Virus record (IMG/VR): IMGVR_UViG_2713896777_000007
Reading direction: 5' to 3' (one strand)
Length of the DNA: 4,689 nt
Origin: a virus
Taxonomy: Duplodnaviria > Heunggongvirae > Uroviricota > Caudoviricetes
In this document: positions 1 through 3,000 of the stretch, one piece after another
Numbering within the stretch: position 1 is the first letter of the stretch
How the letters are laid out: the number at the start of each line of letters is the position of its first letter
Made by a program: the position numbers

Positions 1-3000
1 TCAGATTAATGTTAAGCGTCTTGCAGGACGCGTAATGTTAACTGGGGCTTTTCTCTATCTGCCGTTGGTGTTCATGCCCGAGGCAGATAGCCTCAAGCAC
101 CCGCTGCAATTCTACTTAACTATCCTTTTCCCGCAAACCGTTTTTATCCCCAGCGGCAAATCGAATACACCACCAGCGCCACCGCCATCGCAATTCCTAC
201 CGTTGTGAATGCTTCAGGCCAGGTCATTGATTCACCTCCTGCGGCGGTTCTGGTAGCGACATCCAGTGGGTTGCTTGCCTAAGATCATTACCCGGACTAA
301 CTGCTATACCTCCGCGCCGGAACGTGCCTCCGAGATAGCGTGCGGAATATATTAATGGCCCAGCCTCGCTATCGATATTCATCGAAATAAGCACGTTCTG
401 GCTCTTTTCAGGCATTCGCTCAGTACAGCTTATCCAGCCATCCAGAGTTATCGGAGATCTGGTTGACGTTTCCGAGATTTCCCGAAAATTGTTGGTTGAC
501 GAATTCTTATTTTCCCGAAAGTTTCCGGCCTGAAGCATGGCGACGCGGCAGGCGTTCCAGCCATCAGCATATGTTTTAGTTACACCGTCGAGATGGCAGG
601 TAAGCAAATCCATTTCATCAGGCACTACCATTGCTATCGGCTCTGCTTCCAGTGATGCCAGCGCGATACGAAACACATTAGCCAGCAGGCTGTCTGAAGA
701 CTTGTTATCGTGCGCCGAGTCGCTCAGGAAGCCTGTGATGTATGATTTAATCTCCGCGCGTTCTCTGGTAATAGTGCTCATATCAGTTTTCCTTATACGG
801 ATTAATTTTATTGTGCAGTGCGCTGAATGATTCCCATGTCACATCGGTATATAGCTCAATAACTGGTTCAAATGTCCTTCCAATTATCCAGACCAGTAAT
901 AGCGGGGATATCGGTATCATCAACACTATAAACAGAATGAAAAACAGAAACTCTGTTGTTCTGCTCTTTCGTGGGTAATTTTTTTCTAAATAATGTTTCA
1001 TTTCTTACCGCCCTTTCGGGCGGCCTCCTGATGTTCTGAGGGTGCAGGAATCCCTCCGGTTAAGGATTTAATAAAAATCGTTTCTGATTTAAATCTTCAG
1101 TATTTAGTTGNNNNNNNNNNNNNNNNNNNNNNNNNNNNNNNNNNNNNNNNNNNNNNNNNNNNNNNNNNNNNNNNNNNNNNNNNNNNNNNNNNNNNNNNGT
1201 ATTGAAGATTATTTTCCTCCATCCAGGCGTTAAACTCTTCCGTTGAAATATATTCCCGACCATCACAGAATTTTTCATATTCAGGATGTGTCCAGTAGCC
1301 ATATCCGTCACGAACTACCGGCATTTCTTTAATTTCACTCACTGTTAACCTCCTGCAACGCTACACGATACGCCTTCTTTATCCACGCCTTACTGCCATA
1401 TAATTTCGTCTTCATAATAAACACACCTGCACGACTCGCCGATATCCCCGGACAGGTTAACAGCACAGCATCCACCACACGGTTATGCTTCCGAAACTCC
1501 ATTACAGTACTGCTGATAACCACCTGCCCCACCGGGCCGTAATCCTGATACAGGATTTTCACGCAGACACCCTCCTGTCGAAATAAACGTAGTTATTCAC
1601 TATGCGCAGCGGCATGCCTAATTTTCTGGCAATTTCCCTTCTTTGCATGCCTCTCTGATGCAGTTGCCGCGCCAGCTCAATATCACGCTGAGAATATTTT
1701 GCCGACGGGTGAAAATCACCACGTAACATCATGCTGATGCCCAGCTCCCGTGCCTTCGTTCTCACTGCCGCTTCAGTTCGTCCGATAAGTGCGCCAACGC
1801 TTTTTACCTTCATCGTTCCCGCACACTGCCGGAGTATCATGATTTCCGCCCGGCACCACGTCTTCCACCCACTCACCGCTGCTGTTCTCTGGTGGCGGTA
1901 ATATCCCGGAGAATATCCCGGCACTTGTTCAGCTCCCGCAGCGCGGCGCAGACTCGCTCCCACTTCTGAACCTGACCTTTTGCCCGGCGCAGCTCGCGGT
2001 TAGCCACATGCAGCGATGGTAAAATCAGACCATCCGGATGTTTTCTGGTGAACGACGGCTGTGACTGCACTGTGACCGCCACACTTTCCGTTTTTATTTC
2101 TTCCTGTGTTGCGGCTTCCCGGACTGGTAACGCAGCACCTGCTGGCTGAGGAAAGGCCTTACCATCATTTTTCGTTACCGGCGCGGCTTTCGGATCTGCT
2201 GGTAAATTACCCCCCGACATGCAGTAACGAAATTTACCGTTCTGATTAACGCGTGCCAGCCGCCCCGTTGCGGTTACCACCGCCAGCGTGGAAGCAACCT
2301 TGCGAGTACTGACGCCGAACTTACCCGCCAGTTCCTCACACGTTTTAGCACCATCCTGACCGATAAACTCAACCATCATGTCTGCGGTAACTTTTGGAGC
2401 GACCTCTTCGGTTACCACATCCGGCGCTTCAGGTTGTAGTGCCTGCCCTTCGGTTACCCCGGCTTCACCTTCGACAGCCAGAAACCAGGTGTGACCCGTT
2501 TTATCAACAACGCCATTTTTTTTGAGTTCCCACAGTTCGTTAAGAACTTCTTCACGGCTGATATCAAGCCGCGCCGCCAGTTCAACAGAATTGGCTTTTC
2601 CCATCGCTTTCAGTGCATGCAATACAGTTTCCATCGAAAATTTACCTCGTCAAAAATTCTCACATACCCTGACGTCCAACGTTTGACCGCCAGCTCTCCC
2701 AGTTAAAATTCACCCAACGACCACCATTCATGGTCATACGGTCCATCACCCGATCTCCGAGGAGTGTGCTCATCGCTGCGTGATTCAGGTTCGTCAGCAT
2801 TCCGACACTACGCATCGAAGCCGTTCTGCGGTCGACTATCTGGTTCAGCGTGACCTGCTCGTTGCGCGTATCCCGCTGCATGCCAATTTCATCAAGGACC
2901 AGAAGGTCAACTCCACAAAGCTCCTGTAAAAATTTTTCCCCGGACTGGCCGTTGTCGTAGCCGTCATGCAACACGCTCATGACATCGGACACGGTGACGA

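Follow-up and report, generated by a model that had tools for sequence, protein, structure and literature searches.

A portable Shine-Dalgarno-plus-hairpin cassette before a DUF4014 gene and other accessory genes of E. coli prophages: a candidate split translation initiation region

The window analysed here is a stretch of 4,689 nucleotides of viral DNA (IMG/VR record IMGVR_UViG_2713896777_000007). On its minus strand lies a small gene of the DUF4014 family, which is part of the early-right operon (replication to nin-like) in a lambdoid prophage and is preceded by a Shine-Dalgarno (SD) sequence, a hairpin, and a short spacer. The leader elements reported in the first-pass annotation were all found where it had placed them on this strand. 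In the direction of transcription, the features are as follows.

1030..1075, minus strand: UUAAAUCCUUAACCGGAGGGAUUCCUGCACCCUCAGAACAUC, the non-coding but conserved 5′ portion of the long cassette form, which is missing from the short form
1056-1038, minus strand: possible second hairpin, GAGGG-N9-CCCUC, inside this 5′ part
1050-1045, minus strand: loop UUCCUG of the second hairpin, which can pair with CAGGAG of the SD
1024..1029, minus strand: SD sequence AGGAGG, directly adjoining the hairpin
1008..1023, minus strand: hairpin CCGCCC-GAAA-GGGCGG (inverted repeat I10), with six G-C pairs and a GNRA tetraloop
1023-1018, 1017-1014, and 1013-1008, minus strand: 5′ arm CCGCCC, loop GAAA, and 3′ arm GGGCGG of this hairpin
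1002..1007, minus strand: A-rich spacer UAAGAA (TAAGAA in the DNA), 6 nt, without SD-like sequence
999..1001, minus strand: start codon ATG of the DUF4014 gene, with the Pfam model aligned from residue 1
783..1001, minus strand: DUF4014 (PF13198) gene for a single-pass membrane protein of 72 aa, with the stop codon TGA at 785-783
979..985, minus strand: A7 run in codons 6-8 of the DUF4014 open reading frame (ORF)
224..781, minus strand: downstream DUF551 gene, beginning 1 nt past the DUF4014 stop (TGAtATG)

A search against small-protein families, suggested in the first-pass annotation, returned a full-length match to Pfam DUF4014 (87.2 bits against a cut-off of 23.2; E = 1e-24), in which residues 1-72 align on model positions 1-72, and the protein also matched PHROG 1832 with E = 1e-44. 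The gene is therefore a member of a known family and not an orphan. Its GC content is 35.6% (GC3 39.7%) compared to 49-55% for the flanking genes, in agreement with the earlier estimate of about 35% and of a composition unlike that of the neighbours. A single predicted transmembrane (TM) helix had likewise been proposed, and Kyte-Doolittle analysis in 19-residue windows gave one such helix, with a peak of 2.9 over residues ~18-40. The protein is thus laid out as a basic N-terminus, the TM helix, and a conserved C-terminal tail, and the AlphaFold model contains helices at residues 14-28 and 31-66 with a mean pLDDT of 79. The ORF is a real gene whose product is a small inner-membrane protein, probably N-in, C-out in topology as its basic N-terminus suggests.

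Members of the DUF4014 family are also found in Stx phages, in which this membrane protein is common, and in epsilon15, g341c, and ES18; among species-representative genomes, the gene was present only in E. coli and Shigella. Superinfection exclusion and membrane toxicity, named in the first-pass annotation, are candidate roles only; searches with the 72-aa protein in PADLOC, against PDB sequences, and against BFVD folds gave no match, and literature searches on DUF4014, DUF7167, the hairpin 16-mer, and 933W L0067 found nothing. Two names attached to the family, "released from the phage upon host infection" and "acetyltransferase inhibitor", are putative labels only. The latter derives from an old annotation of epsilon15p46 that was later withdrawn, and the epsilon15 record now reads "hypothetical protein". 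The Gnarl small proteins that modify O antigen (PMC12373910) were also considered; they are not DUF4014 proteins, and DUF4014 is absent from the supplements of that screen.

If translation began at the internal Met28 (MIPISP...), the SD-hairpin arrangement would be irrelevant to the DUF4014 gene. An in-frame ATG is present at this position, and some database entries are annotated as products of 45-54 aa. However, these short products trace to A6 alleles of the A7 run, which occur in many Stx-phage copies and frameshift the gene (MVTLFRKNIRER..., a 26-aa stub). Furthermore, Met28 falls midway along the TM helix, homologues retain the YPRKSR..EF motif at the N-terminus, and those in epsilon15, g341c, and hairpin-less prophages use the same start codon with an SD or translational coupling of their own. 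An internal start is hence the least probable of the alternatives weighed here, and the choice of the long ORF over the downstream Met agrees with the Pfam match over residues 1-72 and the N-terminus common to the homologues.

The first-pass annotation also described the gene as a horizontally acquired moron. Its deviant GC content and its behaviour as a presence/absence insertion support this description in part: the gene is inserted between the cassette and a DUF551-type gene, and in other prophages the DUF551-type gene lies directly behind the cassette with DUF4014 missing. The other part of the description did not hold, as consensus scans detected no promoter-like (sigma-70-like) or terminator-like site flanking the gene, and only 1 nt separates its stop codon from the next gene. 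DUF4014 is therefore an accessory gene within an operon, not a moron of the classical kind. Given its tight packing among the early genes, its expression probably accompanies that of the early lytic genes instead of coming from the repressed prophage.

The leader of this gene has an unusual geometry. From the last G of AGGAGG to the A of AUG, the distance is 22 nt in linear RNA and 6 nt past the hairpin, and no other SD is found between the hairpin and the AUG. This supports the earlier statement that only folding of the hairpin brings the SD close enough to the AUG. The 32-nt leader is predicted to fold into this hairpin with seven pairs, including a G.U closing pair that the last G of AGGAGG is able to form with U1007. 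Its predicted folding energy is -15.5 kcal/mol compared to -6.3 ± 2.2 for shuffled sequences (z = -4.16), none of 200 shuffles folded as well, and the hairpin alone accounts for a ΔG of -12.4 kcal/mol. In 56 of 58 natural contexts the predicted pair probability of the hairpin is ~1.0, the lowest value being 0.78. The window contains a single occurrence of the 16-mer, where 0.04 would be expected with up to three mismatches allowed. One prediction counts against a split SD: within the long form that the window carries, the SD is only ~20% unpaired and the AUG ~14% unpaired.

In DUF4014 homologues without the hairpin, GGAG lies 6 nt before the same AUG, and the hairpin thus behaves as an insertion of zero length; the homologues of epsilon15 and g341c are translationally coupled instead. 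Coupling through an upstream ORF was rejected for the leader in the window, which contains no ATG, GTG, or TTG in any open frame. No promoter or terminator was found in the leader, and an Rfam scan (E-value) of the leader plus gene gave sub-threshold noise only.

The first-pass annotation had tied the hairpin leader to the small membrane-protein gene. The leader is indeed present there, but the same SD-plus-hairpin block precedes at least five unrelated gene families in E. coli prophages. The genes behind it encode DUF4014, DUF7167, DUF551-type proteins, two unknown families, and the Q antiterminator, and the distance from stem end to start codon is 6 to 11 nt. Four of the five families lack any other SD. 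Their spacers (6 nt for DUF4014, 7 for DUF7167, 9 for the xELTK/DUF551-type genes, and 9 for the MQEIKE family) contain no SD-like sequence; besides that of the window, the spacer sequences without an SD are UAAUGA, UAGUUAA, UAAUGAAAA, and UAACAAAUA. The exception is the Q antiterminator gene, which has the spacer UGGAGAUAAUA and an ordinary GGAG 7 nt before its AUG in addition to the cassette. As Q has its own GGAG, the cassette may serve a function other than supplying an SD.

The conserved block begins 1-2 nt ahead of AGGAGG in the short form and stops 1-2 nt past the stem, each upstream class is joined to several downstream families, and no recombination junction between SD and hairpin was found in either the short or the long form. 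The edges of the unit and the free joining of every upstream class indicate that SD and hairpin travel as one unit, and the block is a portable cassette. At 90-100% identity, the 80-nt leader was detected in 2380 (~44%) of 5426 complete E. coli genomes, with 3456 copies in total, and two copies of the cassette ~1 kb apart can be found in one operon. The K-12 Rac prophage has no copy of the hairpin, and 1.6 Mb of related prophage DNA yielded no further SD-hairpin-AUG arrangement. As a family, the cassette is young and confined to E. coli and relatives; because of this youth, common descent instead of selection could explain both its invariance and the constant contact between SD and hairpin.

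These patterns of spread raise the question of whether the block is mainly a DNA-level mosaic joint, that is, a linker for accessory-gene exchange by homologous recombination, conserved since it is recent and spreading, with no RNA-level role beyond a generic SD. The free combination of upstream classes with downstream families, the paired copies within one operon, the near-identity of the leader across so many genomes, and the phylogenetic shallowness of the family all fit such a linker. However, a hairpin of -12 kcal/mol situated precisely between SD and start codons is more than a linker requires, and a linker would account for the spread of the block but not for the translation of genes that lie 22 nt from their SD. 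A mere joint at the DNA level is therefore improbable.

Variation within the stem bears on the same question. Samples picked by an exact match to SD plus hairpin are circular with respect to conservation, and an anchor-based sample was used instead, which is unbiased for the hairpin and comprises 172 instances, all of the long form. The sequence was canonical in 134 of these; 27 carried only changes that preserve pairing as G.U, six were loop variants, and five were disruptive, all five in the two loop-proximal pairs. The G.U-preserving changes are C-to-U substitutions (C4U, C6U, and C14U), a bias that fits a structure formed by the sense-strand RNA. Single C-to-T changes of this kind break the palindrome in the DNA yet keep the pairing in the RNA, which again argues against a DNA-level joint. 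When counted as events, however, the ~4-5 wobble-preserving changes compared to ~4 disruptive ones, including C2G in three phage records, do not differ significantly. No stem pair showed a compensatory double change in the 172 instances, and no compensated U-A forms of the stem were present in IMG/VR; the structure is accordingly backed by thermodynamics and one-sided changes only. Variants of the SD found elsewhere (AGGAGA, CGGAGG, GGGAGG, and AGGAGT) all keep GGAG.

A second alternative assigns the hairpin to the mRNA itself, as an intercistronic element for stability, processing, or insulation. It would form a barrier that guards the upstream cistron from 3′-5′ exonucleases, or a fold that isolates neighbouring sequences; its adjacency to the SD would be inherited and not functional, and downstream translation would be weak or independent of the SD (A-rich spacer, S1). 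Several observations are in line with this proposal. In unrelated environmental phages, ordinary U-tract terminators use the same 16-mer as their stem, which marks it as a generic hairpin of high stability; behind the cassette, the Q gene has an SD of its own; and no compensatory covariation links structure to translation. Intercistronic tetraloop hairpins of T4 are said to have been discussed as stability elements too, by Tuerk et al. in 1988. On the other hand, a stabiliser would leave four of five downstream families without a usable SD, and it does not explain why junctions between SD and hairpin are absent or why the spacing after the hairpin stays at 6-11 nt. We regard this as an unlikely sole role, though less so than that of a DNA joint, and the stabiliser and split-SD roles can coexist.

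Transcriptional roles were also weighed. Since its stem is rich in G+C, its loop is of the GNRA type, and it lies in an early operon, where tR2-tR4 are found in lambda, the hairpin might be taken for a terminator, an attenuator, or a nut/boxB-like antitermination signal of a nin-like region, and the boxB of lambda also folds in a GNRA-like manner. Such a role is very unlikely. First, neither strand has a U tract after the stem, the 8 nt that follow contain just one to three U residues, and terminator scans were negative. Second, boxB has a pentaloop but this hairpin a true tetraloop, and the 127-nt leader contains no boxA-like CGCTCTT. Third, the hairpin is positioned between SD and AUG and occurs several times per operon, and it has no Rfam match.

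The best explanation, and one that we consider reasonably probable, is a split, hairpin-bridged translation initiation region. A strong SD (AGGAGG) lies 22 nt from the AUG, 16 of these nucleotides belong to the very stable predicted GNRA-tetraloop hairpin, and folding would leave SD and AUG ~6 nt apart, plus the width of the helix end. As this folded distance is within the working range, the 30S subunit could bind the SD and, with the hairpin looped out, position the AUG in its P site, as experiments established for T4 genes 38 and 25. We infer both that the hairpin folds in vivo and that translation requires it. Recombination has placed the SD-plus-hairpin cassette before several unrelated accessory genes in E. 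coli prophages.

It is also conceivable, as a more tentative extension, that the block works as a standardised and insulated ribosome-binding part and at the same time as a homologous-recombination joint for accessory-gene swaps. The rigid hairpin would fix the effective distance of the SD to a start codon 6-9 nt downstream and shield the site from neighbouring sequence, so that a gene dropped behind the block could be expressed at once; being identical everywhere, the block could double as the recombination joint. In the long form, the UUCCUG sequence may add a cis anti-SD that tunes expression.

If split initiation regions of this kind are indeed used, the mechanism would not be rare: nearly half of the E. 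coli genomes sequenced would employ it, for several prophage genes that are unrelated to one another. It would explain the translation of genes that seem to lack a usable SD, which matters for gene callers and for predictors of ribosome-binding sites. The cassette also provides a concrete sequence with which to study the exchange of mosaic accessory genes among lambdoid phages.

Compared to known systems, the arrangement most resembles that of two T4 genes. In gene 38, the distance between SD and AUG is reduced by folding from 22 to 5 nt, and in gene 25 from 27 to 11 nt; translation of both is lost when the stem is destabilised (PMC3014915). Our literature search for other cases of split SDs returned only this T4 review, and the documented examples found are these two genes. 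Folded gene 38 reads as AAGGAG, a UUCG-tetraloop hairpin, 4-5 nt, and AUG, 22 nt in linear form. The spacing-by-structure analogy with T4 drawn in the first-pass annotation is apt, since the change from 22 to ~5 nt in gene 38 matches that from 22 to 6 nt here. Both are phage-encoded and consist of a strong SD, an abutting stable tetraloop hairpin, a short A/U-rich spacer, and an AUG, with 22 nt in linear and ~5-6 nt in folded form and no alternative SD. The differences are several. First, the sequences are unrelated, with the loop being GAAA in the prophage cassette and UUCG in T4. Second, T4 is a lytic T-even phage, whereas the cassette resides in temperate lambdoid prophages. Third, the T4 cases are gene-specific, while the prophage block is identical before at least five unrelated families and in ~44% of E. 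coli genomes. Fourth, the function has been demonstrated in T4 and is predicted for the prophage cassette.

Compared to intrinsic terminators, the prophage hairpin shares an identical 16-mer with the stems of U-tract terminators in unrelated phages but has no U tract and lies between SD and AUG. Like the morons of lambdoid phages, the DUF4014 gene is an extra small gene of deviant composition that is present or absent at the same position; unlike them, it is packed in the early operon with neither promoter nor terminator of its own. Its product belongs with 933W L0067, epsilon15 gp46, g341c gp23, and ES18 gp39 (DUF4014/PHROG 1832), and at 47-76% identity to the phage copies nothing sets the window protein apart from its family.

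The 72-aa ORF lies in a window that is part of an E. coli lambdoid prophage, in which every real gene is carried on the minus strand:

3408-4385, minus strand: O-like replication initiator, holding 15-nt iteron-like repeats
2660-3391, minus strand: DnaC/IstB-like loader
1873-2634, minus strand: DUF1627
Listed as 1559-1963, minus strand: HTH protein, after DUF1627 in gene order
Between the HTH protein and the 104-aa gene, minus strand: 75-aa ORF
3' end masked by an N run (1111-1198), minus strand: 104-aa gene
783-1001, minus strand: 72-aa ORF
224-781, minus strand: DUF551 gene

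Five to six of the direct repeats stand at 3946-4035, where the lambdoid replication origin would be expected. The HTH ORF as mechanically listed (134 aa) shares 91 nt with the DUF1627 gene, and its real start is probably an ATG further downstream. The N run also hides where the intergenic region begins; the masked sequence is legible in a related prophage (L001, 5671-6000). An identical copy was found in O157:H7 strain PV15-279, adjoining rspB, where RefSeq names the ORF "DUF4014 family protein."

The ORF is a full-length Pfam DUF4014 (E = 1e-24) and also belongs to PHROG 1832. DUF4014 comprises 122 protein clusters, usually of 72 aa and nearly all from E. coli, Shigella or Salmonella, with copies in Stx phages (933W, VT2-Sakai), ArgO145, D6, epsilon15 (gp46), g341c (gp23) and ES18; the last 30 residues are almost invariant. 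The low GC content noticed in the first-pass annotation was borne out (35.6% compared to 49-55% in neighbouring genes), as was the single predicted transmembrane helix (one hydrophobic segment, residues ~18-40). The AlphaFold model places helices at 14-28 and 31-66 (mean pLDDT 79). Searches of PADLOC, PDB and BFVD returned zero matches to the protein, and a literature search turned up no tested role. The label "acetyltransferase inhibitor" was rejected; it derives from an early epsilon15 annotation, and the current record says "hypothetical protein."

The gene itself is ordinary. It had been proposed to be a moron, and its deviant GC content and its position as an inserted accessory gene agree with this; in other prophages, a DUF551-type gene occupies its place. 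However, neither promoter-like nor terminator-like sites were seen in its flanks and it stops 1 nt short of the DUF551 gene. Thus, it is an accessory insertion packed within the early operon, not an autonomous moron. Codons 6-8 contain an A7 run (979-985, minus strand). Many Stx-phage and prophage copies carry an A6 allele, whose frameshift truncates the product to a 26-aa stub; the 54-aa proteins annotated for such copies begin at an internal start. Either pseudogenisation is common here, or the run is an on/off site prone to slippage.

An internal Met, which had been raised as a possible start codon, was rejected. Because the Pfam model spans residues 1-72, the N-terminus is conserved, and hairpin-less homologues share the same codon, sequence comparison indicates that the start at 1001 is correct. 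The leader reads as first described, C-AGGAGG-CCGCCC-GAAA-GGGCGG-UAAGAA-AUG (1030-999, minus strand), and the predicted hairpin was reproduced: the leader folds at -15.5 kcal/mol (z = -4.16; equalled by 0 of 200 shuffles) and the hairpin alone at -12.4 kcal/mol. Pairing was near certain (probability ~1.0) in 56 of the 58 natural contexts folded, the lowest value being 0.78. Such a hairpin might be a stability or insulating element, which we consider unlikely. Far less credible is a terminator or nut site, since the U tract and boxA are absent, the loop is a tetraloop, and terminator scans and Rfam were negative.

Variation in the stem was examined in a sample anchored on upstream sequence and therefore unbiased for the hairpin (172 instances, 59 unique leaders). 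The canonical hairpin accounted for 134 instances; 27 had C-to-U changes only, keeping G.U pairing, six had loop changes only, and five had one or both loop-proximal pairs broken. Three phage records carry an additional stem variant, a C2G mismatch. No double compensatory change occurred at any pair in this sample, and IMG/VR searches yielded none of the expected U-A compensated forms. The sense-strand bias to wobble-preserving changes is suggestive, not significant. As the cassette family is young, invariance of the hairpin may reflect common descent. In phage Rac-SA53 (L086, 1581-1632), a variant has two G.U pairs (CCGUCU...GGGCGG), and an IS1 inserted ~30 nt downstream has disrupted the gene it formerly served.

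Among 18 unique DUF4014 leaders, fetched by protein similarity and read at the true start codon, 15 have the identical SD and hairpin, and three have an ordinary GGAG 6 nt upstream of the same AUG instead; two more listed sequences were in-gene artefacts of frameshifted copies. The hairpin leader has a short form, beginning 7 nt past the end of a 70-aa gene, and a long form with ~110 nt of conserved non-coding sequence upstream of the SD. This stretch (1030-1110; L001 5983-6081), conserved in many prophages, shows no match to Rfam, promoters or terminators. Within it, GAGGG-N9-CCCUC (1056-1038) may form a second hairpin, and the UUCCUG of the loop can base-pair with the SD's CAGGAG; a C/U polymorphism there preserves the pairing. 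Further upstream lies a palindrome rich in AT (CTGAATAATTAAATTCAG at other loci). One possible role for the stretch is that of a cis anti-SD. For the long form as it stands in the window, folding predicts an SD mainly paired with UUCCUG, which could mean extra regulation or just weak expression.

The main result, as judged from sequence comparison, is that the leader is a reused, portable cassette. The block GGAG[G/A]-CCGCCCGAAAGGGCGG also precedes gene families other than DUF4014.

Families behind the cassette, with distance from stem to start codon
DUF4014: 6 nt
DUF7167: 7 nt
DUF551-type and 155-aa proteins beginning M[T/A]ELTK: 9 nt from stem
158/196-aa family beginning MQEIKE: 9 nt from stem
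Q antiterminator (PF06530): 11 nt; own GGAG as well

Every upstream class was found linked to several downstream families. A pure recombination linker is one reading of the block, though an improbable one; like a stabilising or insulating role, it could coexist with a function in initiation. One operon can hold two cassettes ~1 kb apart; in four IMG/VR contigs (L100, L122, L158, L166) they lie ~1064 nt apart, the short form leading to DUF4014 and the long form to DUF7167. The 80-nt leader occurs at 3456 places in 2380 of 5426 complete E. coli genomes and in only 19 sequenced phage records. Without the SD, the 16-mer is confined to unrelated environmental phages, where a U tract follows 31 of 93 copies, as in an ordinary intrinsic terminator. 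A scan of 1.6 Mb of DNA from related prophages detected no further SD-hairpin-AUG arrangement. PP818812.1 (Actinobacillus phage vB_Apl-pPE4, 11347-12559) has an E. coli-type cassette (96% identity) and a DUF4014 gene (76% amino-acid identity); its host assignment or record purity looks doubtful.

The best explanation, which we favour with some reserve, is that the leader serves as a split translation initiation region. Folding of the hairpin would move the SD to 6 nt from the AUG, or 5 nt with a G.U pair closing, and so allow initiation at the DUF4014 AUG. For four of the five families behind it, the cassette holds the only SD, and they would be SD-less if it were not used; the Q gene demonstrates that the cassette can also precede a gene already having its own. 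The leader contains no upstream ORF usable for translational coupling.

The T4-like layout suggested earlier was recovered on folding the gene 38 region: AAGGAG, a UUCG-loop hairpin, 4-5 nt and AUG, with a linear spacing of 22 nt. In T4, SD-AUG spacing is reduced from 22 to 5 nt in gene 38 and from 27 to 11 nt in gene 25, and stem destabilisation reduces translation of both (PMC3014915). Compared to gene 38, the cassette has the same geometry but an unrelated sequence. The leader probably represents a new natural case of a known but rare mechanism, to which it adds portability and a wide spread in E. coli prophages.
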